Positions 6,001 to 31,100 of a stretch of DNA of 64,000 nt are shown piece after piece; the first letter of the stretch is position 1; each line of letters opens with the position of its first letter. Location of the stretch: positions 600 to 64,599 of the forward strand of contig JAHFHF010000006.1 of the NCBI GenBank assembly GCA_023247055.1. Reading direction: 5' to 3'. Both the position numbers and the translations under genes were made by a program. This stretch comes from Candidatus Omnitrophota bacterium. Its GTDB lineage: Bacteria > Omnitrophota > Omnitrophia > Omnitrophales > Aquincolibacteriaceae. The notes beneath the pieces are model-generated. The model searched no databases. It had not been told where the DNA came from and worked only from the letters and a program-made list of their open reading frames with translations.

Positions 6001-7140
6001 CTTTCTGACGGGCTTAACGGCGGTATTACACAAGTGCCGGATCAATACCGTCAGATTACGATCGACGGCCAGCGCTACCAGGTTCAGGTGTTTACGAACT
6101 CTTCGGGCCAGACCCTGGCGCGCATTGAAAAAGTGCTGCGTACCCTGGATTCCAAGCCAGGCGTGCGCGCGGACGGCAAACTGTATCAGGTGCAGGACAC
6201 GCCCGGCAGTTATACCGTTCAGGTTGGCGGCAGTAAGCGCAAAATTACATGGGTGATGGCCGTCTGTGCCGGCGCCATGTGCCGTGATGTGGACCCCACG
6301 CCGTCTTACCTGCCGTTGGAATTAGAATCCAATCCGTCGCGCAATACCATTACGCTCAACGACGGCATTGAACGGACGCTGGTCATTGATCCCGATGAAC
6401 CCACGAATGTGGATATCCTGCCGGATCAGATCACGAGTTTTGATCTGCCGGATTTGAAACTGGGTAAACGTTTCTTCTACAGCACGGTCCATGCGAACGG
6501 GTCAGTCACGCTGACTGAAACCTATAGCGCCGATCCGCAGACTTACATCTCCGATCCGCTGACGCGCGAAGTGACGATCAACGGAAGAGTGTGGAGCGTT
6601 CAGGTGGCGGGCGGCAAGGCCGTGCTTACGGCGCGGAACATCAAGGAAAGCAGCGCGCTGCCGGGAACTTATGCGGAAGTGGACGGCCGTATTTACCAGA
6701 TTGAAGCGGATGCCCAAAACCGCTGGGTTTTCAGCGACGTGTATCTGTCCGGCGTGGCTTTCACGAGCACAGCCGACGGCAAGAGCGTGACGATTCATGA
6801 GCATGTTTACGATATCAGCGCTGCAGCGGGTAAGGTTTCTCTGAAGGAGCAGCCGCGCTCCTATCCGGTGAAGGAAGATCACGTCATTCTGAACAGCCGC
6901 ATTTACAAGGTGCAGATCGTGCGCGATATCCTGGGGCTGGAACGCGCCTGGCTGTCGGACGGCACGAACCTGATGGTCTCCGGCGAATTTAAAGATGCGG
7001 ATGCGGTCAGCGGCGAAAACAAACAGGCGCGCGCCGAAGTCGTCATTGACGGTAAAACCTTCCTGGTTTCGATTGAGCGCGATCCGTCTATTTACAGCAC
7101 TTTGTCGGATGAATTCCTGATTGTGAAACAGATTAAGCCC
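1..7140 (+). repeat. Array of degenerate beta-hairpin repeats with core h-x-h-x-G-x-x-Y-x-h, then 3-6 residues, then (D)G-x-h-x-h. The period is variable, about 25-60 aa.
   Basis: Translation shows tens of units. Examples are EVTLFDGLRYRMTVSAKGEVSLTE, TVVLDGIRYRISKHPVTGAVELAG, RVTLGDGLEYHVTAGADGRIQLEQ, MSILLDGQIYDILHTGSHRWRF, EVTINGRVWSVQVAGGKAVLTA and EVVIDGKTFLVSIERDPS. Similarity is at the protein level only. The nucleotide sequence is not repetitive. Confidence 0.6.
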
Positions 7141-10100: not shown

Positions 10101-13100
10101 TTTTCTGGCCGCTGCTCTGGCCGCGCATCAAGTGGACACCTTTGCCGAATTGCAGGAATTTGAAGCCTATGAAAAAGCCTCGGATACCGGCGCCAGCATT
10201 CATGGCCTTGTTTCGAAAGGAACCAATGCCAGCGGCGAAGGCGCCATGGGCTTCATGATGGGCTTTGGCGGGGGCGAAGAAGGCAGCCTGATGGCCAACG
10301 GCCCCTCGATCAGCTTTGATGAGACTTTGGCGGAGGCGGGCGATTACCGTATCGGCCTCTCCGCCCGCAGTTTCAGCCACGAGTTTCTGCCGGCCTGGCA
10401 GGGCTGGCAGGTGACCGGCGGTTCCAGCAGCGCGTTTACGCCCGAAGGCGCAATTTCCGTGCAGCCGGGTAATCACTGGTCGAATATGCAAAGCTGGATT
10501 GAAATCAATGGTTTGAATTTTGCCGCGGACAACCGCACGGTCCTGCTGCTGAATATGTTGACCGATGCCGGCAGTTCGGGCCGCGTCTACTTCAAGCGCA
10601 CGGGCGATACCGCCTGGGATGAAGAACGCAGCGTCGACTTTGACTTAATCGCCGACGGGAACGCCCATGAATACATTCTGTCCATGAATGACAGCGAACT
10701 GTGGAATGGCACCATTACCGGCCTCAAGATCGTACCCTCGGATGAACCCTCGCACTATGAAATCCTCGGTGCGGCGTCGCGCCAGTCGGTCGATCTTCCG
10801 GCCGGGTCCGAATGGGGTCTTTACGGGCCGAAAGAAACCAGCAAGTTCCGCTATGCGGTCGTGGTTGATGGTGTTCAGAGGGGGACGTTCGATGTGCCCT
10901 GGAATAAGACGCAGGAGAAAGAAGGCTATGCGGAAATCCAGCTCAACGCTGGTGCTCATCACATTGATATCGTTGAGATGAATTTTTACGACTATCCCTA
11001 CGCTTCGATGGCGGCATTTAAATCCTATGTGTCCAAGACTCTTGTACGCCGGATTATGCCGGCGGCGGATCTCAACGCGGATAATTATGTGAATGAGGCG
11101 GATGCGCGGATTCTGGATACGCTGCGCTCGCGTTTCGAAGCGCCGAACGTTATCGGCCTGCAGGAAGAATTCTTCTCGATTTTGGATAACGGCGACCTGA
11201 CGCACCGCTTTGTGTCGCGCACGGCGCAGGGCCGCAGTTTTACAAGCGACCCGGCCACGGGGCAGGTCACCATTAATGGCGTCAAACTGCAACTCGGCTA
11301 TGATGAAGAGCGCGAGCTCTGGCAGGCGTCGCTCTTTGGCCGTGGCAGTGTCAACGTTTATGATCAGGTTCTGCAAATCGGCACTGAGAAAATAGGCGTT
11401 ACGCGCCGCAAAGACGGCAGTCTTCTTTTCACGGCCTTTGAGCGCACGGAGCCGGTGACTTTTGAATCCGATCCTGCGGCTGAACAAGTCACGATCGGCA
11501 CGCAGACTTACCGTATTGAACGGGATCCGGAGACCCTGCAGGTGCGTTTGTTTGAAAGCGCAGAAACAGCGGGGCCCAGCGGCTGGCAGTCAGCCGTGGC
11601 CGGCGGCGTTGCCGTGTGGGTGCGGCGCGAAGCGAGCGGGCTTGTTTTCCGCACCGGCGGCGAAGACCTGGAATTTAACCCGGAAACACGCCGGCTTTCG
11701 ATCCACGAGAAAAACTACACGCTTTTTGAAAACCGTCTGGGTCAGCTGACGCTGGTGGAAGTGGATCCGGCTGATCTGGACGGCGACGGCCTTGTGACTT
11801 TTGCCGATCAGGCCTTGATGAAAGCCTCGCTGGGCCGGCAGGCCGCATGGACGCTGGAAGCGATTCAGGCGCGCAATGTCGAAGGCTTTATCCGCGGCCA
11901 GCGCAGTGATCAACTGTTTGCGGTCTACGGCAGTTCGGAAAATTACCGCATGGATTTTGATCTTTTTGCCGACAGCGCCCAGCCGGCGGGGCTTGCTTAT
12001 TACAACATTATGCTGCGCGCGCAAAGCTATGACCAAAAAGCCCTGCCCGCCGATTATGAATGGCAGCTTGCCGTCGCTGTTGACGGCGATGACCGCGGCA
12101 TTGTGATCATTCCCGCGACGGCAGGAAGCGTCTCCGAGGAAAGCTTGCGCACGCTCATGGCCAACGGTGCGCATACGATCAGCCTGCGCTGGCTGAATCC
12201 GCGGCCGGGAACCAGCCTGGCCATCGACCGGTTGAGGGTCGCCGAAGAAGGCGTTGATCCGGAAGCCAACCTCGTGGTGCGTTCCGGAATTCCGGAGCAG
12301 GCGATTGGCGTGCAGACCGAACATTCGGGAGCCGGCGGACAACTCATCTTACGGACAGCGGCGGGGGAAACAGTTATAACAATTCCGGCGCAGATGCCCT
12401 GGCCCGGCCCGGATGATTTTTATTGGGCGGAAGTGGATGAAAATACGGGCGCCATTCTGCGCCAGGGTTCGCTGCGTTCCGAAGATGCAGACGAAACCGC
12501 GCAATTCCTGCTGGATGTGGAAACCCTGCCGGAAGGCCGCATCCTGGCCGCGGCTTCCTGGGACGGTTTGACGGTGACGCCGTCTTTAGCGCGCGCGCTG
12601 GAACGGCTGGGTTCAAAACTGATTCGCAGCATGGATGGCGCGCATGAATGGGCTTTTGCCGGCGTCAAAGGACTCCCTCCAGGCAGTGCTTCGGAACAGA
12701 TTCAGGCGTTAACTACGGGTGACAGCCGTTTGGATTTTGATCTGGCCATAACCGGCGGCAGCCTTGAAGACCGCCTGCGGATCAACGCGGCGGACTATGC
12801 CGTCTTCCGCCAAGGCATGAGCGACACGGCTGAGACTCAGGTCTTTACGCTGCAGGGCAAGGATTATTATGTCAGCGAAACTTCACCGGGAACTTTTGAA
12901 GTTTTTGACGGAATTTTGACGAGCGTGCAAAAAATCGTGGACGGCCGTCCGGCGCTGGATCTGGGCAGCCGGAGTTTCTTTGTGGAGCGCGGCGTGAACG
13001 GCGCTATCCGCCTTGAGGGCATTCTTACCGGCGATGTTTTTAGCGACGGTCAACTCGACGGCGCAGATCAGGACTTGCTTGCGGCCAGCCGCGGCCGGTT

Positions 13101-16100
13101 CAGTTTGGACCGCCGTGACGGCACCGTGATTTTCAACGAAAGCCAGCCGCTGGTTTATGCCGTCGAAGTGCCGGAAGACGGCCTGTATTCCGTGGGCCTG
13201 GCGGCGCGCAATTTCTTCAAGGCAGGCCTGGATTGGCAGATCGAAGTGGACGTCTATGTGGATGATGAGATTTATCCGCGGACTTCATTTGACGTGCCTG
13301 CCGGCCTCAAAGACACGGCAAATTATGTCAATGACCTCGATTTGACGGCCGGAGCGCATACGATCCATTTTTACGTGCGCGACCTATACGGCGAGGGCGA
13401 CCACATCACGCAGAATCCGCATCCTGATCTTGCGGACCAGCCGGCCGGAGTGGGTTCCGCGCTTCTAGCCGAAAATTTTATTTTCCGGGCGCAGGGTTAC
13501 CGCAGTGACATGGATCTTAACCACAATCAAAGCATTGACACAGGCGATGAAACGATTCTAGCGGGCTTGATTCTGGCCGGGCCGGTCAGCGTGCAGACGC
13601 TCGAGCCCCTGCCCGTGAAAGTCCTGCGTCTGGCCGGCAAGTTTTACCGGGTCGAAATTTCCGGCACTGCCGTGACGCTGGTCTCCGGCAGTGAAAGCAT
13701 CACTACGGCCGTGGATGAAGTGATTGAGAAGAACGGCGTGTATTACCGCCTGCTGCAAGATGCCGCCGGCGAACTGGCCTTGGCGCGGGAACCGTCCGTC
13801 TACGCGTTCCGCGATCCTGCGTTTGAATTCGGCGCGAGCCGGGCGCTAGACCGTCCTGTTGTTTACGTGCGCGGCCGTTATCTGGAAATCGATCGGGCAC
13901 CGGACGGCCGCTGGCGCTTTAGCGATGCGGTTGGCGAATTCCTGTCCAATAGCGAAAAAACCGAAGTTCTGATCATCGACAAGCTTTTCAAAATCCAGGG
14001 CGCTCAGGCCGGCGAATTGTCCCTTGAAGAAGTCCACGCCGAAAGCCTGAAAACGGTGGATTTGGTGATCAATCTAACGGGGGAAGACTACAAGGTCCAG
14101 CGTGAAGGCAGCCAGTGGCGTTTTATCCTCGCGACGAATGCGGCCGTGAGTTATCTCTCCGTCGACGGTGTGGTCACGATTCAAGACAGACCCTACGCCT
14201 TGCGCTGGGATGATCAGCTTCAAGAGTTAGTTGCGGGCAATCACCCTGTTATTTCCAGTGATCTGGCCGGCCAGTCGGTGGTGCTCGACGGAGTGCTCTA
14301 TACGATTCGCATGGATACGGCCGATTCGATCAGCCTGCTGGGTGAAGGTCCGGATGCGCTCGCGGGCGGGACTGTCCCCGGAAACCTTACGCTGGCAGGG
14401 GCGGTTTATGCGGTCGAAAAACTCATCGACGGCCGTTATGTTTTCTCCGGTCAGGTGCAGAGCCGGCCGGCGGAAGAACCCATCCGGTTGTTTGACGGCA
14501 AGTTTTACAGCGTGGCGCATGACGGCGAGTATTTTACGCTCAGCCAAGGCGGAAAGAATTATTCCAATCGTCCGCGTTTAGCGAATTTGCCGGAAGTCGC
14601 ATCGACCGGTGATTTAACCGCGTTTGAATACTTGAAAGACGGTACGGTGCGGCCGGAGATCAGCGATGTCTATGACTCTCAATCCGGCACGCTGACGTCC
14701 GGCGTTTTTACGGTTCCGGGGGATCAAAACTATACGTGGACCTGGGAAATGGCCGCGGGCGGCGAGAGCGGTACCCTGAAAATTCTCAATGCATCCGGAA
14801 CCGCTGCCCTGCAAGAAACCATCAGTGAATCCATGATGTCGATGCCGGGCGGCTGGACTTTAAATTTTCTCAACCCGTTTATTTCGGGCAAGCATGCCGG
14901 CTATAAAGTCAGCTACAACACCGGAACGAATACGCTTACTCTCACGCCCGCCGGCATCACCGGCAATTTTACCGCGCCGGATGGAACGGCTTATCTTTGG
15001 GGCCTGACGCGGCATGAGCGCAAAGACTCCGGAGGGCAGCCGGATACGCTCAATGACGGTTATGTTTTCCGCCTGAGTCAAGCCGGCGGGACGGGCCTTT
15101 ATGAAAAAACCGGTATCGTTGCGAAGTCTCAAGAACTGAATGCGGATTTCACGGGTCTTGTTCAAATGGCCGGCTCGGGCTGGATGGTGCATCTGGATGA
15201 AAACAGCGGCAAACTGCGTTTTGATCCCAAGCATTCGAGCGGGAGTTTCATTTCGGCTGTGGACGATGAGCGCTACATCTGGTCGATCGATTGGACCCAG
15301 ACCGGAGAATTTATGAAGGGGTGGACCTTTACGCTGGAGGATGAGGCCGGCGTCAATACGTTTACGCGTTCCGGTACGCTGAACAGTGATCCGACTTTGG
15401 CGATGCCTGAGACGTTTCCACAGCCGTTTGAGGGTGTTTACGCGCTCGCGAATGCCGTGGAATATCAAATCAGCTTTGATCCGCAGACGAACCGTATGAC
15501 CCTGGCGCCGCAGCGCGTGCTGGTGGAAGAAAGTTCTGACCGGATTTTGATTGACGGGCGCTGGTTTGCGATCAGCGGGACGGATACCGGCAGTCTTGTG
15601 CTGACGAATGAAATTTTGGAAGAGGCCGGTCAATACCGTTTAGCCGGCGAGCGTTATGCCCAGCAGGTTGAAACGAGCATGAACGAGATGGGTTTCCCCG
15701 GGCCGCAGGTGCTGGTGCTGACGGATGAAAACGGCCGGCGCTTTGAAAGCGTTTTGAATACCACATCCGCCGCGACCGGCCAATACGGGTATAACGCCTA
15801 TGGTTACTGGGGGCCGATGTATCAATACACCCATACGTACACGGTCACGATCAAAAACATGACGTTTGAAGTGCGCCTGCCGCCCTATGATCCCTACGAC
15901 TCCAATCCGCCGCCGCTTGAAAATTATACGCTCGTGCCGTATCAGGCCGCGGCCGTAACGGCGGTTGTGCCGGCGGGGACGCTGGTGAAAATCGGCGGCG
16001 CAATTTATGCGATTACCCCCAAGCCGGGCGTTGAAAATGTCTACCTGATTAGCGACGGCCAAACGCTGACGGAAGCTGGGCTTGGCGAGCCGGTGCGTTT

Positions 16101-19100
16101 GAATGGCATCGAATACGTCATCCGCCGCGCGCCTTCCGGAGCGCTCAGTATGATCCAGCAGGTGCAAACGCTGTCCGGGCACCAGGTGATTTTGGAAGGT
16201 GTCCGGTATTCGGTCGAAGAGCAGACGGGCCGGGTCATTCTCTCCGATGGTGTTCAGTCGTTTGAGTCCGATGACGCCAAAGCGAAGATTACGGTCAAAG
16301 ACCGCCTTTATGATCTTGTGCGCACGGAAGCCGGCGCCCTGGTGCTGGTCGAATCCGGCGTGGTCCGCTCGTACCAAACCCTGGTTTTCCAAAATAAAAC
16401 CTACGATGTCCTGCGCAATAGCGACGGTTCGATTTCGCTGCTCTATCACAAGGCAACGCATGGCACGTTGGCGCCAAAAGAATCCGTCCAGATGCCTGCG
16501 CAATTGCGCTATAAAGGCGGAAATTACACCGTGAGCACGCTGGAAGACGGCCGGCTTCAGATCGAAGGTCCCGAAGGTGTTTCCACCAGCGCGGCGGAAA
16601 CGGGCCTGATTGATTTTGACGGGAAACTCTGGCAGGCCGTGCGGCTTGCGGACGGCCGCTGGACGATTGAGGGAACATTCGAAAGCGCTCCGGCCTCCGG
16701 CCAACCGCTGTTTTTTGACGGAAAGATTTACACGCTTGCCATGCAAGCCAATCAATTCGTGCTTTCCGACGGACGCGCTCACTATACGGCGGATGTCTCG
16801 GGTTTTGTGAATTTGAACGGCCGCACGTTCTTCTGGAGCGGGACCGGGCTGGAGGATTTCCAGATGTTCAACCGGCCGTATCTTGGCAGAACCGATACGG
16901 AAATCCAGCTTGAAGGTTTGAACCTGGCCTATCAGATTGAATATTCCATGATGACGGGCCCGGTCCTTAAAATCACGGATTCTGAACGCAATGCGGTTTA
17001 TACCAGCTTTACGGATCAAACCAGGGCCTTCATGGATATCCGGGGCGTTCGCTACGAGATTACGGGCAGCTTGTATGACAGCTTCGGCGAGGGGTTTGGC
17101 CTGCGGCCGGCCGCCGGAAACGTGCCGGCTTCTGCGCCCGCCGAGGAAGGAACCCGGCTTGTGGTGGAAAACCGCATTCTCAGCGTAAGCCTCAAAGCGG
17201 GCACCGGCGATATCTATCTGGCGTCCGACGGTACGGAGACGCTGGAAGTCCGGCTCGGTGAGACGCTCAACGTCAACGGCCTTCCTTATATGCTTAGTCT
17301 GCCAGCCTCCGGCGAACTCAAATTCAGCCTGAGCAGCCGCCAGATCAGTCTGGCGCAGTTGGGGCTGGATTCGACGTCCTATCTGGCTTTTGAAACCGCG
17401 GCCGGCGAATGGGCCTTCCAGGGAACTTACGATCCCACGGGTGAATTGAGCACAAGCACGGGCGGCGGCACGCTGGTCCAAATCGGCGATCTGAAATATC
17501 ACATCGAACGCCTCCCTGACGGCGGCCTCAAACTGACCGAAACCGAAGACAGCGCGCCGGTGGTTTATGAAGATCAACTCTTCCGCAGCGACTTGCAGGC
17601 CCGCACGATCCGCATTTCCGGCAAGATCTACCGGCTCGCACTTGCGGCGGACGGGGACTGGGTCTTGAGTGAAGATTACGAAACTTCGCAGGCCCTGCAG
17701 CCGGCGGTGGAAATCGGCGGCCGCAAACTGCAGTACCGTTTAGAAGACGCGCAGGTGATCTTGACGGACGGGAAAAACAGCTTCCGCAGCAGCCGCGACG
17801 GCTCAAACGTGACGATCGACCATCGCCGCTATGCGATCCAGCGCAGCGGCAGCGCGATTACGCTTTCCGAGCCGTCTCTGCCGTACAGCCAGACGATCGA
17901 TGCGCTTGGCGCAATTTGGCTGATCCGCCGCGACGCGTCCGGAAAAATCATGGCCGACAATCCCGAAACCCAGGAAACGTTTGCCGGCGATACGGCTGGT
18001 CTCGTGATTACGATTCGCGGCGTGCAGTTTGATATCACGGGCGAGGAAGGCCGGCGGATTTTCACGCCGCGTATTTCAGCCGAACCCACCCTAGCCGACG
18101 GCGCTTTCTTGCTGGCCGGCCGGATGTTCTTTTACAAGACCGAAGACGGGCAATTGACCGTGACGTATGCGGACAGCGGGGCCGCGGCCGGCGCAGCGGA
18201 CGAAAATGCCGGACTGATCGAAATCGCCGGTACCGTTTATCAAGTGCAGCGCACGAGCGGCCGGCTTGAATTCCATAAGCAAGCCTTTGAAGAAGCTCAG
18301 GAAATTTCAGGAGCGGTGTTTTACATCAACGGAACGATTTATGAGGTTCAGTATGATGAGACTGCCGGGTCTTTCGAAGTACGCAGCGGCCAGAAAACTT
18401 ACACCAGCGATCCGGCCACGGGGCATATTTTGATCGGCGAAATTGCGGCTGAAATCCGCCGCGATACCGCGAGCGGCGAAATTACGATCACGGTGCCCAC
18501 AGCAGCCAGCGTCAAGCGCGCCGACCAGGCGGTTGAACTCAAGGGCCAGATTTATTGGCTGACGCGCCTGGAAGCCGGCCGGTACGAAGTTTATGATCCG
18601 GCTGCGAAAACGCCGCATGCGTCCCGCCTTGAACAAATTGACGGCGTCTGGCTACCGGTGGTGGATCTGGCCGGCAGTGTTTACCGCGTGGTCGAAGACC
18701 GCGGTGAACGCATGCGTCTGGAAGAGGTGACAGAGGAATTTATTTCCGACGACCGCTTCAAGGTGCTGGCCGGCGGTAAGGAATACACGATCGGCCAGGA
18801 TTCCGTGGATCAACGTTTCTATCTCGATGACGGCACGCACCGTTTCTATGAAACCGGGGTGGATGGCATTATCAAGATCGGCGCTGATTCCTTTAGCGTG
18901 CGTGAACTGGCCGGCCGGCGCTTGTTTAATCCGGAGGTGGTCAAGCGCGCCGATCTGGATCAAAACGGCGAATTCAACGCCGAGGATGCGCGCATCTTGA
19001 CGCGCCTGGCCAGCCACTACAAAGACATCAACGGCGACGGTCTGGTCGATCAGCAGGATATTGACGCGTTAAATAAAATTATTGATCTCACGCCTGAGAT

Positions 19101-22100
19101 CCGTGATGCGGTGCCGGATGGTCAGATTACATCCGATGATTTTACTTCGCTTGACGTCAACCATGACCGCAAGATTGATTACCGCGATGCCAACGCGCTC
19201 AACCAGGTGGTGCAGAACCGCTTTGACATCAACCGCGACGGCCTCACCTCGAGCGGCTCCGGCGTTCCGGCGACGGATGACCTGGCATTTTTCAACGCCC
19301 TGTTTAGCCAGATCCGCCAGCTGCAGGCTCAGGGCATTGTGGTCGAGCCGGCCAAACTAAAAGCGCTGGATGTCAACAATGACGGGCTGGTGACGCATGA
19401 GGACGTGACGGCGCTTGGAAAAGTGATCGGCAAGAATTTCGATATCAATGGCGACGGCAAACTCGATGACCTGGCCAATCGCAAGGATGAAAAACGGCTC
19501 GACGATGTGATCAGCGCGCTCGCTTTGAAGATCAAACAGAACGAATTGACGCTGGCCGATGTGAACCGCAACGGCAAGGTCGATGACAAGGACCGCTCCG
19601 ACCTTTCGGAATCGATCCGCAAGTATACCCAGCTCGCGGTTGCCGCGGATTATGACGCCAGCGGCCTTTTTGATTACGGCGACCTCGTAGCCCTGCAGCG
19701 GGATGTCGGCGAAATCCGCCGCGGCAGCCTGCTCAGCCCGCAGCTGCTCTCGCGCGCGGACATCAATAATGACGGGCGCGTGGATGACCGTGACTGGAGA
19801 ACGCTGGAGCAGGGCCTGGCTTCGCACCGGGATGTCAATGAAGACGGCCGCATCGACAGCAAAGACAGCGAGGTGCTGGAACGCTATCTGAATTTCACAG
19901 CCGGCGAAATTATTCCGGCCCGCGAAATCCGGCTCGAGACGCCGGAGGGGCTCGAGAGCCAAATTACGGGCAGTCAGTCCATTGTGCTGGATGACGAGCG
20001 CTATGTTGTCTCAAAGAACACCGAAGGCGCTTATGTGTTGACGTCCCGCGACGAGACGTTTAACGCCTATGGCGGAATCAATATCGTGGAAATCGGTGAG
20101 CACATTTACGACATCTACGAAGATCCGGACGGCAAGATCCGTCTGGTGGATCAGGAAGCGCGCACGCATCAGAGCATGCACCGGGCGGATTTCGTCATCC
20201 GGCTGGGTGAGCGGGAATATGACGCTTATTTCAAAGATTACGGCCGTTTTGAATTTAAATCCGCCGAGTGCTTTGACGGAACCGAAAACTGCGAAACGGC
20301 GCTGAGCGGTTTTGACGACAAAGTAACACTGCAAAATCAGGTGTTTATCGTTGAAACCGACTCGCTGACGCGTCAGGCCGCGCTCAAAGCGGCCTCGATG
20401 CGCAGCCTGAAACGCGCGGACCAGGTCATTGAACTGGAAGGCAAACGCTACGAAGTGGTCAATCATTTTGACGGCAGCTATACGTTCAAAACGGATGAGT
20501 TTGAACAGCGCTCCGACCGCGATCAGAAACGCGTCAAACTGGACGGAATTTATTATGACATCCACGAAGATCCGCTGACGGGCCATGTGCAGCTGGCTGA
20601 ACAGCATGCGATCAGCCGGGTGCTGGCTGACCAGGTCATCCGCATTCAGCGCAAAGATTCGCTTTCCTTGTCCGAAATTTATGCCGGGGCGGATACGCGG
20701 GCGCTTTTCCTGGCCAGCCAGGGCGGACAGAAAATCGGCAGTCCGGTCGTTTATGACGATTCTTACCTAGTAAATTTCAACCTTGACGGCACGACGACCT
20801 TTACGCATGAGAAGACCGGCACGAAATACACAAGCGGCCGCTCCCAGGAAGACGGCACTTCCGTTGTGACGATTGACCGGATGGCTTTCCGTATTTTCTC
20901 CGATTACGAAAACGGCGGGATCTATATCGAGCAGGATCATGAAAAACTGGGCTCCGATGCGGGCGCCGGTGCGGGCCGCGGCCAAGTCACGTTCTTGAAA
21001 GCCGGCGAGCCGGTGACTTACGAATGGATTTATGATGATGCGACCGGCAAGCTCAAGATCAACGGTGAATGGGTCAACCCCGAAACCAATACAGCCTTGC
21101 TCGACGGCCAGCAATTCCTGATTAATTTTGATCCGGAAAAAGGCCGCCTGGCCATGGAACAGGCCTACCTGCGCTCAAGCCGCGTGGCCGATCAGCGTTT
21201 GATTCTGGAAGACACGTTGTTTAATGTTTCGCACAACAAGGACGGCTCTTTCTCGCTCTTTGACGGCGAGACCAGCTTCCGCACCAACCCGGTGTCCCGC
21301 AAGGTGACGATCCGCGGCCGGGTTTACGATGTGATTGAAAACAGCTACAGCGGATCGATCACGCTGGCCGAAGAGTACAGCCGTGAAAGCAAGCCGGTCT
21401 ATGATCAGGTCATTGAACTCAACGGCAAAAATTATTTTGTGCGTGAAAATACGCAGGATGGCATCACGGAGTTCATCCACGCTGACGAGACGATCCGCTC
21501 CACGGCCAGCCGGACCTGGCAGGACGCATCCATTGATTTTACCAAGGATAAGATGCCGCAGGGCTGGGCGCCGGAGACGGGCAGCTGGCGCATCATGGCC
21601 GGCCGCGCCGAATCGCTGGTGCAAGGCCAGCAGGCCTCGTTTGCCCGCACCGGGCTTGTGACCGAAACTGATTTTACATTGTCGGTCGATCTCTCCTTTG
21701 AAATCCTCAGCGATGAACCCGCCGCGCCTGCCGGCACAGCCGATGAGCGTCTCTGGGAAGGCTCAGTCCTCTTTAATGTGATGGATCGCGATAACGCTTA
21801 CGCGGCCCGCCTGTTTGAGCGGGGCGGCAGCCGGTTTGTGGGGTTATACAAGCTGGTTCACGGGATTGAGTATCCGCTGGCCTTGGAGCGCGAACTGCCG
21901 TTTGAGTTCAGCACGGAGACGGATTACCGCATGCAGATCCGTGTGGAGTCCGGCAAAATCACGCTGGCCATGAATGATCAGCCTCTGCTGGAGGCCCAGG
22001 ACCATTATTTCACCGGCGGCGCCGTGGCGCTCGCTGGCAAGGGCCGCGATGTTCAGTTTGACAACATCGTTCTGCATCACGCGCACGAACTGGATCAGCC

Positions 22101-25100
22101 GCGGCAAGTCACGATAGATGACCATCTTTACACGATTTCACGGCGTGATTTTACCGAGACGTATGATCTGGATATCAACCGGGACGAGGCGTTCAGTCAA
22201 GGCGACAGCGGCGCCCTGCTGGAAGCTTTGCTCAGTAACGGGCTTGTCAGCGAAGAAGACTTGGCTCGTTACCGCGCGCAGGGCGGAACCGCGGGATTGG
22301 GCGCTAGCGGCGGCGAGGGCGAGGGATCGTTTGCGGGCGGAGAGAGTGCCGGAGGGGGCGCAGGCATGCCGGCCGGCGGGGAAACTGGCGCAGGTTCAGG
22401 CACGTCCTATCAGGTTTCGGAAGACGAAGGCGTGGATTTGAGCGGCCTGCATGTCAGCATTCCGGGCCGCCTGCCGCGTTCGACCGTGGACATTACCGGC
22501 GACGGCCGCGGTGATATTGCGGACATCAAACGTATCCAAGAAATTCTGTTTGCCGTGCGCCGCGGTGAAATTGTCCAGCCGCGTGATTACGAGAAGGCGG
22601 ATGTTACCGGGGATGGAAAAGTTACGGATGCCGACTGGAAAGCGATTGAAACCGCGCGGCTCAAAGCGGCGCGCAGTGACGTGACCCAAGATGGCGTTAC
22701 GGATTACCGCGATGTTGAAGCGATCCGCCACATTGACCGCGAAGAAGTCATCCGGGCCACGGCGTCTGAAATCGCGAAAGCGGACCTGAACCACAACGGC
22801 GCGCTGGACGCTGCGGATGTGGCGCAGCTTGAGCAGACCATGAAGCATATGCATGAGCTGGATCTTGATTTCGACGGCAAGATTGTTTTGGCGGACGAAC
22901 TGGCGGCTTTTGACAAAGCCAAAGAATTTTACGATCTGGGCTTGAGCCTGAGCGCCGAACAGTTTGCGCGGGCGGATATCGATCAGGACGGTTTGATCAC
23001 GCCGGCGGATCTGCGCATTTATGAAAAACTGACCCAGCAGTGGGATGCTGCCGGCACGCCGCGCAATGTTTTTGATCTGACCAACGACGGCGTGGTGGAT
23101 GGCAGCGATGAGCAGCGCATGGTTGATCTTTTGATGGCCGAGGGCCTCAAAATCACTGAAGAAGAAAAAGTCCTCGGCGATATCAACCGCGACGGCATAA
23201 CGGACAGCCGTGATTTGGATCTCTATACGCTGATTTATCAAAATGAAAACCGGCTGAATATTGATGGGGTGGCGGGCATCAATGCGCAGGATGTTAATAA
23301 AGCCGCCTCGATCCGCAGCTGGCTGGCCGCGCGTAATGCGCCGGTGCGCGGGCTGACTCGGTTGAAAGATCTTCAAGATGCGGGCGTGGACACCGCCAAT
23401 CCGGATGCGGTTGCCGCGCATCTCAACCAGCTGATTTCAACCACGCAGGCCAAGATTGCCGACGTCAACGGCGATGGTCTGATCGATGAAAAAGATTTGG
23501 CCCGCGCCCGCGAAGTCGAGGAAATCGTCAGTTACGGTATGGACCGCGGCTTTGCGCTGGACATGCGTTTCGATCTTAACCAGGACGGCAAAGTCGATGA
23601 CAGTGATCTGGCGGCGCTGATGACCGCCATTTCCAACCAGATTGTGCATGATGTGAATGCGGACGGCGCGGTCAACCAGACGGATGTGGATCTTTTTGAC
23701 CGCATGATCCGCTATCAACGCACGGGCTATACGGTGATGCCGGATGATCTGGAGAATGCCGACATTGACCATAGCGGCGCTTTTGATGCGGGCGATGTGA
23801 CGAATTTCACAAACGCGCTGCCATTCTACCGCGATGTGACCGGCGATAAACGCCTGGATAGTGCGGATCTGCTCGCGGTCCGTAAAGCCAAGGCCTTGCA
23901 GGAAGCCGGTTACACGGACCGCTCCTCCGGCGAGCCGGTTTACCGGCCGCTGACGCTGGATCTGCTGCGCCGTGCGGATCTGACCCGCGATAACGTGATC
24001 GACAGCGCGGATAGCGCTTTTCTGGCGCAGGCCATTCAAGGCAATCTGGATCTGACCGGTGATTTTGCCGTGACGATCGAGGACCAGCTGCGGCTCGGCC
24101 AGTATTCGCCGTGGGGGCTGGGCGTGAAGCAAGTCGAACGTGCAGACATTGATCAGGACAATCTTATCGGCGCGCGTGATTATGCCGGCCTGCTGGCGGC
24201 GCTCGGCGGCATTGACCGCGCGGATGTCACCGGTGACGGCAAGGTCGATGCCAATGATCTCAAAGATTTACGCCGGCTGGTCGAAGCGGCCAAGCTGAAA
24301 GTGACCGGCCGCGATGTGGTGCTGGCGGATGTGACCCGGGACCGCAAGGTCGATGTGGCGGACGTGACGAAAGTCATTGAAAGCGTACGGGCTTTGCAGG
24401 CCTTTGACATCACCGGCGACCGCATGGTCAATGCGCTGGATGAACAGGCGCTTTTCTTCCTGTGGGGCGTCGAGCCGCTGGATCTGTTAAACCAAAGCGA
24501 AGCCGCTTTGGCTGAGCTGGAAGCGCGTGCGGCCGCTGCGGTCGACGCCGGGGAAGCCCGCGCCATCGAACGCGCGGCCCAAGGTATTTTTAATCAGGCC
24601 CTGACCATGGAAGAAACCGGCAAAGCGATTGCGCGCATGCTGCTCAGCCCCAGCGAATCGCAACAGATGCTGCAGGAAATTGCGCAGATCATGGCGCGTC
24701 TTTCCGGACACCGCAGCGCCATCCAAGCCGTGCTCGCTGCGCTCACCGGACAAGCAGCGCTGGCCCCCAGCCTCGCAAGCCAGCTGGAAGATGCCCTCAA
24801 AGTCCTCAAAGAAACTTTGGTTGAAGCGCGCGCGGCTGAAAGTTCGGATGCGGTGGATTCATTGGTGCTTTCGGTCGAGCCCGTGATTCAAAATATGCGT
24901 ACACTGGCCGGGACGCAGGGACAGGTCCAGCCAGGAACTCAGCCGGACCTGTCCCTGGCTGCCTATCTGGATCAGGGCGAGGCTGTTTTTGCTGAACTCT
25001 CCGCGTTGGCGCAGTCCGTGCGGCAGGCGGAAGAGACGATGGCAGGCCTTGCCGAACAAACCCGCAATGCGCTGGCGCTGGCGGATTGGATGAGCCGGCA

Positions 25101-28100
25101 GTTTGAAGCCGGGGCAGATACCAGCCCTGCTTTTGTGTCGCTGCTGGCTTTTGGCCGGAATGCCCTTGCCGAGTCGCAGCGTGCGGCCCAGGCTGCGCGC
25201 GCCCGGGCGTCGGGTCTTCTGGCACAGATGCCGGCGAATACCGCGGCCCTGCAGGCCCAGGAAACTTTGCGGGGCGCCCAGAGCCGTTTGGATCAAGCGC
25301 TGGAAACCCTCACGCAAAGTTTGCATGAGGCCCAGGCTGCCGAGAACGGTGCCATGCCTCTGGTGAAGGAAGCTCAGAGCAAACTCGACCACATGCGGAT
25401 TTTGGCGGCGCAGTCCGTGACCACGGCCCTCGCAGGCACGGCCGCAGCGCTCGTGACCCAGCTGGCCCGGTCCAATCTCGGCCGCGAACCGACACCGGAT
25501 GAAATCAGAGCCGCCGTGGCGGGCCTCGCGGCAGGAGAAACACTGGAACAGACGGCGGGCCGCTTGCTGGCAATTTCCGATGCGGCCCTGATCAAAGCCG
25601 CGCTGGATCCGCTGCGGGATAAAACCTCCCTGGATGAAAGTGCTCTGGGCGCGCGCTACCAGGCCATGACCGCAGGCCTCTGGCCATTGGAAAGTGCGAC
25701 TCAGTCCGTGATGAATTATTTTGGACCGGCCATGGATTGGCCGGCCGAATTGGCACGCTTGCAGCGGGGGGCCGACGAAATTCTCGCAGATTTAGAGGCG
25801 GCTCTCGCTGAAATGGACCGCTTGCTTTATTTGAATCCCGGCCATGCGGAACTGAACGCCAATGCTCTGCTCATGACCGATGTTCTGAATCAGGCGGCCG
25901 GCCTGGCTGAAGACCTGCGGGAATTCCCGCAGGTGCTGACGCCGGAAATCGAAAATTTCAACCTTGCCAAAGCCACGGCCGAAGCCAGCCTCGCGTCTGA
26001 CGAAAATCTGCAGGTCCATCTGGCCGCTGCCGAGCTTTTGACCGGACGCATCGACGCCATGACTGAAACTGCGGATAGGGCGCAAGCGCTCCGCTGGCTG
26101 GAAACTTTTGAAACCACGGCCGCCGGTCCTGTGCCTCAGCAGATCAACGCACTTGTGGCGGCCGCCAGAACCAAAGTGGAGAGCGCGCAGCAGGTGGAGG
26201 CCGGCATCCGTCTGCTTGAAGCTGCGGCCGAACAAACAGACGCAACCGCCGAATTTATCCGCGCGCAAGCCGGCACGATGAACCGTGAAATGCTGATCGG
26301 CGTCGTGGATCAGCTTCTGGGGCAGTTGGAGGCGGCCGCGGCACAGGCTTCAGGCGTGATCAGTCAGTATCCGGACACGGCGGCGTTCAGCCGTTTGAGC
26401 GGCCGTCCGGAAGCGCTGATGGCCCAGATTAAAGCCGCTCACGAAGCCATGCTGGCTGAATTATTCCATGAGCGGGTGGTCACAAATCGCGGGGCCGATT
26501 CCGTTGAAACCGCCGCGCTTTTGGCCGGTGCTGTGAACCGGTTGGGCGCAATCGCTGCGGACAATGGAGTGGCAATTCATGAATTGCCACTACGGATGCT
26601 TTATACGCTGATAAATAACACACGATCCAAAGTCGCTGTGCTGGAAAGTGAACTGGCTACGGCCGTCAATGCCGGCGTGGATGCCGGGGCTAATTTGGCC
26701 TCAATTCGCGACTACCTGGCCCGTATTGACCAAACTGCGGCGGCCTTGAACGCCCGCGCTGCGGCTTTGGGCGCGGATGTGAATGCGCCGCTGACGGCGG
26801 CTGACAAGAATACCGCTTTAATTTCGATTCTCAGCGGACTTGAAACGCAATCCCAGGCTGCGAATGCGACGGCCTTGACCCTCAAACAAATCCAGCAGGC
26901 TGTGCGCGAGATCCAGGGACAAGTCCAGTTAGCCGCTCAAGTGCCGGGGACTCAGGGAGAGGTCCAGTTAGCGGCTCAGATGGACCTGTCCCTGCTCACG
27001 GTTAAAAATGCACTGCTGCGTGCCACCGGCGGCGCGTCTCTGGTGGAAGAAACGGTTTATCTGGCCGCGGCCGGGCGCTTGTCGCTGGTGCTTGCCAACA
27101 ACACGAATGATTTGACCTTATTGAACCGGCTCGAAGTCTTTGCCGGTGATTTTGCGGTTCAAGCCGCCGCGGCCCGCGCAAAATTGGCTCAGCTTGCTGC
27201 CGCAGACAGCACGGGCGTCTATGGCTTCAGCGCCAATCTGCCTTCACTCGCCGCGCTCGAAGCCGATACCGGCAAAACCAAGGCGCTTGTGACCGAAAGA
27301 CTGGCGCATTTGGCCGGACAGCCGCAGGCTTGGTCCACGGATCCGCTGGTGCGCGCGCTGCATGAAGCCGAAGCCCTGCAAAAAGCCATCATGGTCCAAC
27401 AGGGACAGGTCCAAACAACTCAACAGGACCTGTCCCTTAAGACTTCGCTCGCGATCCTGGAAGCGATTGGGGAGGCCGTGACCAGCACGATCGCGGCTTT
27501 GACGGAATCCGCCCGTCAGGATGCGGCCGCTTTTGAAGACCGCCAGCGGCTGCTTGAGAATTACCGCGGTCGTTTTGATTTCTCCGAACAAGCCGCTCTG
27601 CTTCAAAGTGAAGAAACCATAGCGGCGGCGGAGCAGGCGCGTGCAGCCGAGCAAGCCGCATTCGAGCGTCACCTCGCCCTGCTGCAGGACCTTGAAACCC
27701 AGGATGAAACCCTGGCCCGGGCTTTGGCGGATATGGCGATTGACGATGCTCAAGAATTGCGCGATTTGGGCGCTGAGCCGGATCTTGCGATCGTGGAACG
27801 CCTGGAAATGCAGGCTGAATCCGCGGAAGCGCGGCAGGATTCCGGAGCGCAGATTGAAGAACTGGCCGAGGGCCTCGCCGCCTGGATCGAACGGCTGGAG
27901 ACCATGACGGCCGGTCTGAATACCAACGAGGAGTTGGCGGTGCGTGAAGGCTTGCTTGATCTGGCGGATGCCGTTACGGCGCATTGGCAGGAACTGCTGA
28001 CCGAGCCGTCTGCGGCCGAGGTGCGCCAAAAAGTCGATGCGCTGCGCAGCGTTGTGACGCAAGACCTGCAGGCGCTTGAGACCACAAAAGGGGCTGCGGA

Positions 28101-31100
28101 TGCGGCCGCCGATTGGCTGAAAGAAAACGGCGCGCATCTGACCGAACTGGACCGTCTGATTGGCGAGGCCATGGCCGCATTTGAGACTGCTGCGAAGACC
28201 ACCGGTGTAGGGGCGGGTTCTAAAACCGCCCAGGATGCCGCTGCTTCCGCGCGCCGGCTCTATGAAGAACTCGAAACGCTTCAGGATGAATTTATCGCGC
28301 TTACAGCCGAAGTCGAAAATGCCTCAGCCTATGAAGACGACATCAAGGCCATGATGACCGCGCGTGAGGAGTTCCGCGCGGAACTGGACGGCCTGGCGGA
28401 AACACAAATCCTGACGCAGATCCAAACCTCGCAGGGCGCGGATGTCACCCAACTCCTGAATACGATTGAAGCGCAGATGACGGCCAATCTCAATGCCCTG
28501 CGCAATCTGGACCCCGAAGAATTCAAAAAATCCACGGCCGAACTTTTGGCGGGTCATCCGGAATTGGGCGGCCTCAAACTCGAACTGCCGGATGCCGGAG
28601 CCCTGGATGAAAACTCTCAGCCCGACCTCTTGCGGGCCTTGCTTGAGGGCGCCCGGACGCCGGCGGCCGGCGGCACGCCGCTGCGCGGTTATTATCTGGG
28701 TTATCCGGCCACAGCGACGCTGATGAACCTTGAAAATCTGATCAGCGTTCTCGCGGCCCAGCAAGGCTCCGGAACCATTTTCGCGGAAACTTGGCTGACG
28801 AGCATGCGTGAGCGCATGAACGCCTGGTTCAACCGCATGTTCGGGATGGAGGCTGAACTTGAACAGTACCGCGTCCGCATGATCGTTGACAATTCCGCTG
28901 CGGGCATCGAATGGTCACGCGTACTCGATGGAAATATTAGCGCGGTCAATCAGCTGATCAGCGAAGCGTCAGGCGCTGCCTCAGGCGCGGATGCGGTCAA
29001 TAAACTCCGCCAGGCGGAGCGTATGATCGCGCTGGTCGATGCCCAGCAGCGAGCCGTGCAGGCGCTCTGGGACGATGTGCGCGCGCGCGGTGAGATGAAC
29101 AGCATCTGGTATAAGACGCGTACGATTTGGCAAAGCCTGCCGCCGCTGGATGTTTACGGGAAGTATCTGGACCAAATGGAAATCCTAAACGAGGGCGGTG
29201 AAATTTTACCGGGTGAAATCGTCGCCTATGGAAAACATGTGAGTGATTTTGCCGCGGAACTGGCGAAAAAAGTCAAAGACCTGAATCTGGCCGCCGACTC
29301 GGCGCGCCAGGCCGCGGCCGGCAAACTGATAGGCTCGCTCAAATCGAGCCTGCAGGCGGACCAGCGCGTGATGGATAGTCTGTTGACGGAGATTCGCGGA
29401 ACCTCTGATGCCTGGGTGCGCGAGGCGGCCCGGCGCGAGATCCACACCCTGCTGGAAAAGGCCGGCCAGCGCCTGGCGGATGCCAGCGTGCAGGCCGACG
29501 AGTGGCTGGATGCCACGACCTTTACAGTGTGGACCCGGTCCATTCTGCGGGAAAACGGCATCGACCCCGATCTGCCCGAAAATCAGAAGATCTTTGAAGA
29601 GAAGAGGGCGAATGTGCGCCGGAACGAAAAACTGAAACTGGATGGCGAGCGCCGCGCGGCGGCTGCCATGTTGAACGGCTTGCGCGTGCTGGCGGAACAA
29701 GCCGGGGCCGCAGTCATGGACAGCCTGATTTTTGAAGGCGGCAGCAAACTGCTGACCGCTGAATTGAGTGAAATCAGAACACTGCTCGGCGTCTTTGCCG
29801 CGCGCAGCGAATCTGAGCGCGATGCCGTCAAGACCGAGGCCTATCTTGAAACTGCACGCATTCTGCGTGATAAAGCGCTGGTTTTGATGAATAAGGTGCG
29901 TGAGCAAGCGGCGGCCGAGGACGCCACGCTGGAAGACCGCAATGAAGTCGCCAAAGCGGAGGCCCAATGGGATCTGATCAACACTGCCGCCGGCTATCTG
30001 GAAAATAACCGTTCAGTTCAAACAACTCAGGCGACCGGCGGTGATTCCCTGACGAACGAGGCGCAGCGATTCTTTGAGGCCGGCAATGCTCTTTATGGGG
30101 TGCTTGATGATATGCTGGCTCGCCGGCAAGTGCAGCTGGCGGGGCCCTATGACGATCTCAGTAACGATTCCGCGTTTACCATTTTACTCGCATACGGGGA
30201 TCAAATCACAGCCGACCTGACGGCCCTGCGGGATCGTATTCAGGCCACGAGCGGTATTCTCTCAAACGCGTTTGTGAATACAAACATCTGGCTGCAGCAC
30301 CTCAGCGGCATCATGGAAAATGCGCGGACCCGCGCCGCAGCGTTTTTCACCATCGGCGACCCTTCCTCGATCCGGCCCCTGGACGCCATGCGGACACTCA
30401 ACAGACTGTCCGGCAGTATGACAGCGGTCATCAAGGAAAGCTTAGAATCGCACGAATTCGCTGCGTACCGGGCGGAGAACTATCGCGCGTTTGAAAGTCT
30501 GGCTCAGGGACTGCGCCGGACGCTGGATCAAAAATACCAGCAGCTGGATACGATCTACCGGGCGGATCGCACGGCGGCAGCCCTGGCCGAACTGAAAGAC
30601 GCCGCGCTGGAAGTCTTCAAACCCGCGGCCCGCTTAAATGAACTGCGCATGGCTTTCGGTGAAATGGCCGAGGTGGCGCTGGCGGATTTAACCCAGGCTA
30701 GCGTCGTCGAATTTTTACGGACAGAGATCGAACGCTCCCTGTCTGCGAATGAAGCGGCCCTTATCACGCGCGCGGCCGAAGAAGTCCAGCAAGGGTTGAT
30801 CCGCGCCGCGTCCGTCTCGGCCGTGGGCATCGCGCGAAACCATACGAAGTACGAAGTGGTCTTTAATAATACGACACAGCGGCGCGAACGGACGGTGATC
30901 GATTATGCGCTCAGTGCCGGCGGTACAGCTGCCTTCCGCCAGACGCTGGCGCAGGCCTCAGATTTGCAAAAGCCACTTTCTGAAATGAACGAGCTTGCCA
31001 TTCTCGAAAAAATCCGCGAAACCAACGGCGTTTTTGCCACGGACTATGTCAAACGGCAGGCGCAAATGTTTGAACGCTGGCGCCTCAAATTTATTCCGCA

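Follow-up and report, generated by a model that had tools for sequence, protein, structure and literature searches.

A 64,000-nucleotide stretch of DNA from a Candidatus Omnitrophota genome (the window) encodes part of a giant protein with two arrays of type I dockerin modules, non-cellulosomal and internal to the chain, and our preferred reading, to which we give about an even chance, is that these arrays are Ca-folded spacers. A six-frame stop scan revealed that positions 1..63999 of the plus strand form a single stop-free frame of 21,333 codons, open at both ends of the window. This frame is a fragment of a giant-protein gene of more than 21,333 codons, and both arrays therefore lie in the interior of a protein longer than 21,333 aa. 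No plus-strand ORF appeared in the ORF list because the giant frame runs off both window ends, and all the listed minus-strand ORFs are shadow ORFs within it. That the whole window is one frame was a point overlooked in the earlier, sequence-only reading of this DNA.

Dockerin array 1 (18952..19899, plus strand; aa 6318-6633) is supported by Pfam Dockerin_1 matches and segment calls, and contains 10 loop-helix segments with loops starting at aa 6318, 6342, 6385, 6409, 6457, 6481, 6520, 6550, 6587 and 6611. The loop-to-loop spacing is 24/43/24/48/24/39/30/37/24, short gaps (23-30 aa) alternating with long ones (37-49 aa). The full Ca-ligand set, defined as D at position 1, [DNST] at 3 and 5, a hydrophobic residue at 8, [DNSTE] at 9 and [DE] at 12, is kept in eight of these loops, and two of the 10 carry insertions. 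The first and last segments of array 1 would be half-modules; the array ends suit short-gap pairs better than the canonical long-gap pairs.

Dockerin array 2 (22171..24480, plus strand) has 21 segments with loops from aa 7391 to 8136, of which 17 are canonical, giving 25 of 31 array loops with the full ligand set (8 in array 1 and 17 in array 2). Its first segment is isolated (22171..22242, plus strand; aa 7391) and consists of the loop DINRDEAFSQGD and then a helix; between it and the core of the array, direct reading found a low-complexity linker rich in Gly, Ala, Ser and Glu (22276..22413, plus strand; aa 7426-7471). The core (22489..24480, plus strand; aa 7497-8160) comprises 20 loop-helix segments, whose gaps are mostly 24-26 alternating with 32-38 aa; three breaks are longer (68, 48 and 33). 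Further loops lie outside the arrays, all on the plus strand: six solitary loop-helix segments at 8323..11850 (aa 2775, 3103, 3264, 3354, 3690 and 3925; spaced 90-336 aa), a group of three at 36082..36330 (aa 12028, 12052 and 12089; gaps 24 and 37), and a solitary segment at 37891..37960 (aa 12631). The two dense tandem arrays described in the sequence-only reading are thus real, with coordinates and counts right to within one or two segments (10 + 21 found), and so are the solitary loops that it had seen scattered elsewhere (the set at aa 2775-3925, the triplet from 12028, and 12631).

The strict loop motif of the sequence-only reading was observed 19 times in the 21,333-aa translation, versus 0.01 +/- 0.1 in shuffled sequences (n=200), and a segment HMM built from the window found 27 segments at >=5 bits and 0 in a shuffled copy. 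No DNA-level tandem repeat was found in nt 18500-25000, and the array segments share 26% mutual identity, or 15% without the ligand positions; the repeats are therefore old and diverged, and not an assembly artefact. Over 122 segments from the window and its relatives, conservation was found at positions 1, 3, 5, 6, 9 and 12 (Gly at position 6 in 72-90%) and as hydrophobic residues at 2, 8, 16 and 20. The relatives are giant-protein fragments, mainly from Candidatus Omnitrophota MAGs, with identity of about 27% in the repeat regions. Nine of the best ten source-named relatives come from MAGs of Omnitrophota and show the alternating 24/35/26/37 spacing too; Candidatus Uhrbacteria is the label of one related protein, and the other taxon-labelled top matches are all Omnitrophota. 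Their arrays are even more regular, with as many as 61 loops over 2,796 aa, and an exhaustive profile search yielded 216 clusters of proteins at E <= 1e-30; in many of them 10-29 stretches matched, every stretch being one match to a 4-loop profile. Against a non-coding or mis-assembled repeat region that mimics a motif array thus stand 21,333 codons without a stop, the lack of DNA-level repeats, conservation confined to ligand and hydrophobic-core positions, and homologous arrays in independent assemblies. Nothing was found in support of such an artefact; we regard it as refuted and give it practically no chance.

Pfam searches of 1,000-aa slices placed Dockerin_1 (PF00404; curated cutoff 22.9 bits) over its gathering score in five: 89.9 bits (nt 18001-21000, array 1, three independent stretches), 97.8, 31.7, 41.6 (nt 9001-12000, among the solitary segments) and 29.7 bits (the group of three). 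Within both arrays, eight stretches are individually significant for Dockerin_1. EF-hand_7 (41.2 bits) and EF-hand_1 (34.5 bits) passed their cutoffs in one slice only, nt 21001-24000, and no RTX or TSP3 match at E <= 0.01 was found in any slice of the window, so membership in the RTX or thrombospondin type 3 Ca-repeats was rejected. The dockerin assignment of the sequence-only reading, which had been set against RTX, TSP3 and other Ca-motif families, therefore came through the profile scan, with Dockerin_1 best and EF-hand lower.

The EF-hand matches could nevertheless suggest an EF-hand-type Ca2+ sensor or buffer, in which the back-to-back layout makes each loop helix-flanked and turns the array into a chain of EF-hand pairs that changes shape with Ca2+ concentration or stores Ca2+. 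In a phmmer search against PDB the top match of array 1 was sarcoplasmic Ca-binding protein (E 2.7e-4), the CelS dockerin (2mte/1daq) also being matched (E 4.5e-4), and the spacing of 35-37 aa is that of the EF-hand pairs of the EF-hand-annotated relative P0170. However, Dockerin_1 scores are two to five times those of the EF-hand models, and position 12 of the loop, where Asp is the dockerin state and Glu that of EF-hands, is Asp in 98% of the 122 family segments. Foldseek gave EF-hand structures a probability of <= 0.11. With these data membership in the EF-hand families (PF13499 / PF00036) was rejected, and we judge the sensor or buffer very improbable.

Structure prediction pointed the same way: in its modelled form, the 4-loop unit aligns with type I dockerins to 1.5 Å across 53 residues, shows the three-helix F-hand-pair fold of that type, and has the cellulosomal double-dockerin PDB 8x39 among its structural neighbours. 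In both AF2 models each loop leads into a helix; the models have moderate local confidence and low pTM (0.34 and 0.21), as would be expected of a chain of small modules and not of a globular domain, and we count this in favour of a structural over a docking role. The 10-loop model is unreliable (pLDDT 48.9), and inter-module geometry is not to be read from it. We conclude that, as judged from sequence and predicted fold, the array modules are type I dockerins, with cohesin binding putative.

The arrays flank a cassette. Its first part (19900..21516, plus strand) holds beta-rich units, about seven in number and each some 70 aa long, with the consensus D..I.L....Y.V.....G.Y... V.L.G..YDI.EDP..G...L; these units gave no Pfam match and no PDB match, and paralogous copies of them occur elsewhere in the giant protein. 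The second part (21517..22080, plus strand; limits read from sequence) is a candidate DUF1080 or 3-keto-disaccharide-hydrolase-like, concanavalin-like domain, its PF06439 match being weak and partial (18.5 bits, E 0.0022, cutoff 26.8; aa 7301-7357 aligned with positions 120-185 of the 187-position profile). Above cutoff are an ILEI domain (12433..12672, plus strand; PF15711, 33.9 bits, cutoff 27) and a Peptidase C39-like domain (34957..35205, plus strand; PF03412, 41.8 bits, cutoff 22), the latter sitting between the only two strongly hydrophobic segments that a hydropathy scan found in the window (aa 10790-10811 and 11787-11805). The lectin-like domain between the arrays and the ILEI domain in the same protein would fit a direct adhesin, whose Ca-loaded loops and helices bind a non-protein ligand of the target cell, such as an acidic polysaccharide or S-layer glycan, the arrays supplying avidity alongside the neighbouring domain. 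In smaller relatives, domains of the lysozyme, SH3 or peptidoglycan-binding type accompany dockerin arrays, and adhesion and cell-wall processing are favoured in the published proposals. On the other side, the protein is locally strongly acidic (net -63 and -79 per 1,000 aa), which speaks against binding of acidic surfaces except by way of Ca bridges, and the exposed positions are unconserved. No dockerin is known to bind carbohydrate. We hold it to be distinctly unlikely.

In the spacer that we prefer, a dockerin module would be formed by two 12-residue Ca-binding loops with a helix after each, a linker with a short helix, about 11-13 residues long, connecting the paired loops at a loop-to-loop distance of 32-38 aa. 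Consecutive modules would follow without a linker, the helix of one entering the loop of the next 24-26 aa on. The modules may fold only on meeting extracellular Ca2+, and the folded modules, roughly 5 and 10 in number, would then make stiffened, extended spacers on either side of the cassette. Such spacers could project the functional cassettes and keep them apart in a surface protein that serves to attach to other cells or to attack them.

The arrays might instead be a multivalent docking platform, in which a cohesin or cohesin-like partner is bound by each module, whether that partner belongs to the same giant protein, to another secreted protein or to prey, resulting in an "inverted cellulosome" of enzymes or a predator zipped to its target. 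The modules resemble in sequence and predicted fold the type I dockerins of cohesin-dockerin complexes, and to our knowledge the dockerin fold is a protein-docking device in every characterised case. The structural neighbour 8x39 is the double dockerin Clo1313_0689 of C. thermocellum, whose first module is reported to bind cohesins (review PMC12484212), and the authors who described the giant-protein class propose attachment roles. Against this, neither Pfam nor phmmer versus PDB detected a cohesin or any further PDB-related partner domain across the 21,333 aa, the Pfam matches listed for adjacent genes of a related Omnitrophota contig include no cohesin, and no bacterial cohesin partner is named in the Omnitrophota giant-protein papers (bioRxiv 10.1101/2023.11.21.568195, bioRxiv 10.64898/2026.06.07.730766, PMC10066038). 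Nor are the contact positions conserved among the repeats: positions 10, 11, 17, 18, 21 and 22, which we take to be the cohesin-contact sites of type I dockerins, are near maximal entropy (3.1-3.8 bits) in the 122 family segments. In C. thermocellum dockerins the cohesin recognition residues presumably lie at positions 10/11 and 17/18 of each segment, and no residue pair recurs there among the 31 window segments, that is, no conserved cohesin recognition was found. The modules abut with zero linker, whereas the norm in cellulosomes is a lone dockerin that a flexible linker separates from the rest of its protein. The lack of a cohesin in the window, the hypervariable contact positions and the linkerless modules together lead us to infer that modules for Ca-dependent folding and spacing are favoured over 15 independent cohesin-binding sites. 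Hypervariable positions could equally be compatible with many different partners, whose many specificities diverse contact residues could encode, and genes for cohesins could lie in other parts of the genome, or the cohesins could belong to the target cell. We rate the docking platform as unlikely. Its more specific form, a docking rail of abutting modules in which each diversified contact face catches a different cohesin-like partner among secreted predator enzymes or prey surface proteins, appears quite improbable; if true, it would put an "inverted cellulosome", with dockerins instead of cohesins on the scaffold, into the cell-cell attack of an ultra-small bacterium.

Comparison with known systems sets the arrays apart from several of them. 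EF-hand proteins (calmodulin, sarcoplasmic Ca-binding protein 2scp/1q80) share the helix-flanked 12-residue loop of pentagonal-bipyramid type and weak sequence matches, but differ in Glu at loop position 12 and in the far lower scores of their profiles, and the fold neighbours of the modules here are dockerins. RTX adhesins (MpIBP, LapA, SiiE) are built of Ig-like beta-sandwich repeats and RTX nonapeptides, and Ca sites in and between their tandem modules are thought to stiffen the extender after export. The likeness, a very long surface protein with many Ca sites across tandem modules, is a functional analogy only; the arrays here gave no RTX or Ig Pfam match. Cellulosomal type I dockerins (C. 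thermocellum Xyn10B and CelS; PDB 1ohz, 2ccl, 2mte) have the same duplicated 22-24-residue segment, the D-x-N/D-x-D-G-x-h-D/N-x-x-D loop with its helix, and the PF00404 match; they are terminal modules that bind a known cohesin via conserved contact residues, while the roughly 15 modules here lie inside the chain and abut. Cellulosome producers are known to have double to septuple dockerins, the triple to septuple ones in R. flavefaciens and Oscillospiraceae (review PMC12484212). Those are 2-7 modules ending proteins of ordinary size in hosts with scaffoldin cohesins, unlike here, where a giant protein holds arrays of 5 and about 10 in its interior, or in relatives, which have 30 or more.

The closest system is that of the dockerin-type giant proteins already described in Omnitrophota. 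West-Roberts et al. 2023 (bioRxiv 10.1101/2023.11.21.568195) describe a class whose examples have ORFs of at least 30,000 aa, numerous dockerin/EF-hand repeats, bacterial TSP3 repeats, accessory DUF1080, ILEI and C39 peptidase domains, and a transmembrane anchor at the C-terminus with a SecA-like domain behind it; a dockerin-bearing class is also found in bioRxiv 10.64898/2026.06.07.730766, and Aquinicolibacterium lacustre has a giant ORF with nine dockerins (Seymour et al. 2023, PMC10066038). These papers give Pfam copy counts, up to 15, and as far as covered do not describe the alternating spacing and the absence of linkers. The window shares with this class a giant single ORF, here of at least 21,333 aa and open at both ends, many Dockerin_1/EF-hand repeats, long unannotated stretches, almost no predicted transmembrane segments over most of its length, and ILEI and C39 domains above cutoff, with DUF1080 below it (18.5 bits). 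It differs in having no TSP3, discoidin or GNAT match in the window, TSP3 repeats being present in relatives, and in its identity of only about 27% to any database protein; the C-terminal transmembrane/SecA part would lie beyond the window, within which no SecA match was found. The view that either a Ca-stiffened rod or a multivalent scaffold binder would be unusual was therefore overstated, because multi-dockerin giant ORFs have been published in Omnitrophota, multiple dockerins are known in cellulosome producers, and 216 related clusters were found here. Since the arrays lie within a giant gene of the published kind, we conclude that the protein that bears them represents a new and divergent case of the Omnitrophota dockerin-type giant protein, an already known oddity.

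Two tandem arrays of dockerin-type calcium loops, each loop followed by a helix, are directly visible in the translation of nt 18700-24700. The sequence-only reading had put their total at about 30 loops, and this was borne out: by hand curation, array 1 (nt 18952-19899, plus strand; 316 aa) comprises 10 segments and array 2 (nt 22171-24480, plus strand; core about 660 aa) 21, and a strict form of the loop motif had 19 occurrences across the 21,333-aa translation, versus 0.01 in shuffled sequences. A relaxed motif occurred 45 times in the same 21,333 aa, versus 5 in shuffles, and an HMM of the segments, derived from the window sequence itself, found 27 segments at 5 bits or more but none in a shuffled copy. 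The full set of calcium ligands was present in 25 of the 31 segments. Gaps from loop to loop alternate between short (23-30 aa) and long (32-49 aa), with a regular 24-26/32-38 aa alternation in which the modules, each a pair of loop-helix segments, abut without linkers.

No DNA-level tandem repeats of relevance were found in the arrays, and segments share 26% identity overall, or 15% when the ligand positions are left out; we therefore consider the arrays to be old, diverged and kept by selection on the motif. In the absence of such repeats, readings of the arrays as an artefact or as a recent expansion were both rejected. Array 2 begins with one isolated loop, and the 46 aa that set it apart from the array core (nt 22276-22413, plus strand), of low complexity and rich in Gly/Ala/Ser/Glu, probably form a flexible hinge. 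Dockerin-type loop-helix segments also occur singly: six of them, 90-336 aa apart, were found at nt 8323-11850 (plus strand), perhaps the counterpart of the "ladder" described in the literature, in which dockerin-like helices flank beta-barrels. Two weak loop-like motifs, DINNNGILD and DINQNGRID (nt 56392-56540, plus strand; aa 18798 and 18823), have no Asp/Glu at position 12 and are probably a different calcium-type motif or unrelated.

A six-frame stop scan revealed that frame +1 is stop-free from nt 1 to 63999 (21,333 codons) and runs off both ends of the window. Since the whole window is one open frame, the arrays are internal (aa 6316-8160) to a giant protein, and since the plus frame is open at both ends, the ORF listing shows minus-strand ORFs only, all of them shadow ORFs. 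Four antisense open stretches (nt 502-3462, 15643-17739, 39448-40713 and 59023-60750, minus strand; 987, 699, 422 and 576 codons) share one minus frame and are probably not genes but a side effect of how the giant gene uses codons. Most of the 21,333-codon frame had no Pfam or PDB sequence match, save short dockerin, ILEI, C39 and weak DUF1080 matches. The G + C content ranges from 0.51 to 0.62 along the window, changing from about 0.58-0.62 upstream to about 0.51-0.56 after nt 42000 (window about 42000-64000). Asparagine makes up about 5-6% of most of the downstream part versus 3-4% upstream, with the increase beginning at about aa 13000, slightly ahead of the G + C drop. Such a change in composition inside one ORF might mean that this region differs in origin or is under different constraint. 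Acidic, nearly cysteine-free and with no more than two strongly hydrophobic segments, the window protein has properties compatible with export, though these do not prove it.

Pfam was run on 1,000-aa slices of the whole window protein. Dockerin_1 (cutoff 22.9 bits) was matched in five slices, all on the plus strand: nt 9001-12000 (41.6 bits), 18001-21000 (89.9 bits), 21001-24000 (97.8 bits), 24001-27000 (31.7 bits) and 36001-39000 (29.7 bits). EF-hand_7 (41.2 bits) and EF-hand_1 (34.5 bits) were matched in a single slice only. The RTX, TSP3 and cohesin models had no match in any slice of the window, and assignment to RTX or TSP3 was rejected as neither family matched. With Dockerin_1 above its cutoff and RTX and TSP3 absent, the Pfam scan supports the earlier dockerin reading of the loops. 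It is very probable that the arrays are dockerin-type and that the giant protein holding them belongs to the published class, the Omnitrophota "dockerin-type giant proteins".

In a phmmer comparison with PDB sequences, array 1 matched a sarcoplasmic calcium-binding protein (E 2.7e-4) and the CelS dockerin (E 4.5e-4). An AF2 model of 10 loops (aa 7855-8160, 9-row alignment) was unreliable (pLDDT 48.9, pTM 0.21), and its secondary structure alone was used, in which every loop is followed by a helix and each long gap holds a short extra helix. A 4-loop model (aa 7855-7968, 39-row alignment) reached pLDDT 75.7 and pTM 0.34; when it was compared to the PDB by Foldseek, type I dockerins ranked first (1ohz_B, probability 0.96, with weak E-values) and EF-hand proteins ranked below them (probability 0.11 or less). 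A putative EF-hand-like sensor, the reading on which the EF-hand and sarcoplasmic protein matches bear, is highly improbable. In the same comparison 54 of the 56 residues of 2vn5_B were aligned, linker included, so the long-gap pair most likely represents the canonical module, with the short gap then probably serving as the junction between modules. Against the long-gap pair, both arrays start and finish in the register of short-gap pairs.

The array region had only five protein matches at E <= 1e-5, four of which, all partial, come from Candidatus Omnitrophota MAGs, the other being an unlabelled JGI protein; the best relative scored 356 bits at 27% identity. Arrays in the relatives are even denser, with 61 segments in the 2,796 aa of P0001, a homologous giant-protein fragment whose gaps cycle through 24/35/26/37, giving a super-period of about 122 aa. 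Peptide-pattern scans of genome and metagenome contigs with aa 6634-7400 gave no confirmed relative. An exhaustive profile search, using a 21-row alignment of 4-loop units against 1.84 billion representatives, matched 18,685 proteins at E <= 1e-3, 2,065 at E <= 1e-10 and 216 at E <= 1e-30; many of them were matched by the 4-loop profile in 10-29 stretches. Among the top matches with a taxon label, all were Omnitrophota save one Candidatus Uhrbacteria. Tandem dockerin arrays also occur in ordinary-sized proteins, with other spacings (34/42, 32/34 and 27/30), and some of these combine with lysozyme, SH3 or FG-GAP domains. The Omnitrophica MAG contig JADGBR010000015.1 (GCA_015231405.1; 69,855 nt) is filled by five dockerin-bearing ORFs in succession on one strand (3026, 3985, 942, 1013 and 14,271 aa), its likeness to the window being limited to the dockerin arrays and the C39 region. 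The first two ORFs overlap by 4 nt, and the locus at nt 1-31046 contains 111 N. The five ORFs may be one giant gene broken by assembly gaps or frameshifts.

Between the two arrays lie beta-rich repeat units of about 70 aa (nt 19900-21516, plus strand), ending in the motif Y-D-I-x-E-D-P-x-x-G-x-h-x-L, and a weak DUF1080 match (18.5 bits in Pfam). The motif presumably recalls YD/RHS repeats, and paralogues of the units were found at aa 595-1039, 1862-2240, 2957-3085, 5367-5483 and 6087-6187. No significant PDB match was obtained for the inter-array region or with a profile of the 70-aa beta units, and the units had no Pfam match. An ILEI (interleukin-like EMT inducer) domain is located at nt 12433-12672 (plus strand; 33.9 bits, above cutoff); this domain is unusual in bacteria, but is nonetheless a listed marker of the published dockerin-type giant proteins. 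Of 19-residue stretches, only two in the window are strongly hydrophobic (nt 32368-32433, aa 10790-10811, and nt 35359-35415, aa 11787-11805, plus strand), and a Peptidase_C39-like domain (nt 34957-35205, plus strand; 41.8 bits) is located between them; the region may be a membrane-associated self-processing site, as the literature suggests for the class.

Conservation across 122 segments of the family covers the calcium ligands, G6 and hydrophobic positions 2, 8, 16 and 20; positions 10, 11, 17, 18, 21 and 22, which we take to be the cohesin contacts of type I dockerins, are almost random. Neither Pfam nor PDB phmmer, the latter run over the entire window protein in five chunks (no solved-structure relative at E <= 0.01), detected a cohesin in the window, and there was none among the Pfam matches of the JADGBR010000015.1 genes. 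Multivalent docking by putative cohesin-binding modules, to which the type I dockerin likeness is relevant, is therefore unlikely. Dockerins are unfolded without Ca2+. Because the contact positions are near-random, no cohesin was detected and the modules are linker-free, with an acidic, cysteine-poor protein compatible with export, we tentatively favour calcium-triggered folding of the modules into a putative stiffened spacer, which would display the beta-unit/DUF1080 cassette sited between the arrays. As between rod and scaffold, we lean to the structural reading.

The giant proteins of Omnitrophota rank among the largest predicted, and we know of none that has been biochemically characterised; non-cellulosomal dockerins are, to our knowledge, widespread, with none of known function. 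The window offers a clean, stop-free 64-kb piece of a giant gene, with arrays (316 and about 660 aa) compact enough for expression, which would allow tests of calcium-dependent folding, stiffness and partner binding, and the alternating spacing and missing linkers provide concrete structural constraints for such tests.

West-Roberts et al. 2023 (bioRxiv 10.1101/2023.11.21.568195) defined the Omnitrophota "dockerin-type giant proteins" by many dockerin/EF-hand and TSP3 repeats, DUF1080, ILEI, GNAT, a C39 peptidase and a C-terminal transmembrane and SecA part, and proposed attachment and cell-surface processing for them. In another giant ORF, nine non-cellulosomal dockerins were found, which "may serve as adhesins" (Seymour et al. 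2023, PMC10066038). Direct adhesion by the arrays themselves, a putative role on which these proposals bear, appears to us decidedly doubtful beside the stiffened spacer. Also reported are a class of dockerin-bearing proteins in which PF00404 occurs up to 15 times per protein (2026 preprint, bioRxiv 10.64898/2026.06.07.730766), and double to septuple dockerins in cellulosome producers together with a double-dockerin structure (2025 review, PMC12484212). Such arrays had been thought unusual when the DNA was first read, a view that was not supported: multi-dockerin giant proteins are already in the literature, so the architecture is known. The published picture of the class is unchanged by our findings, and the window is a divergent new example of it.
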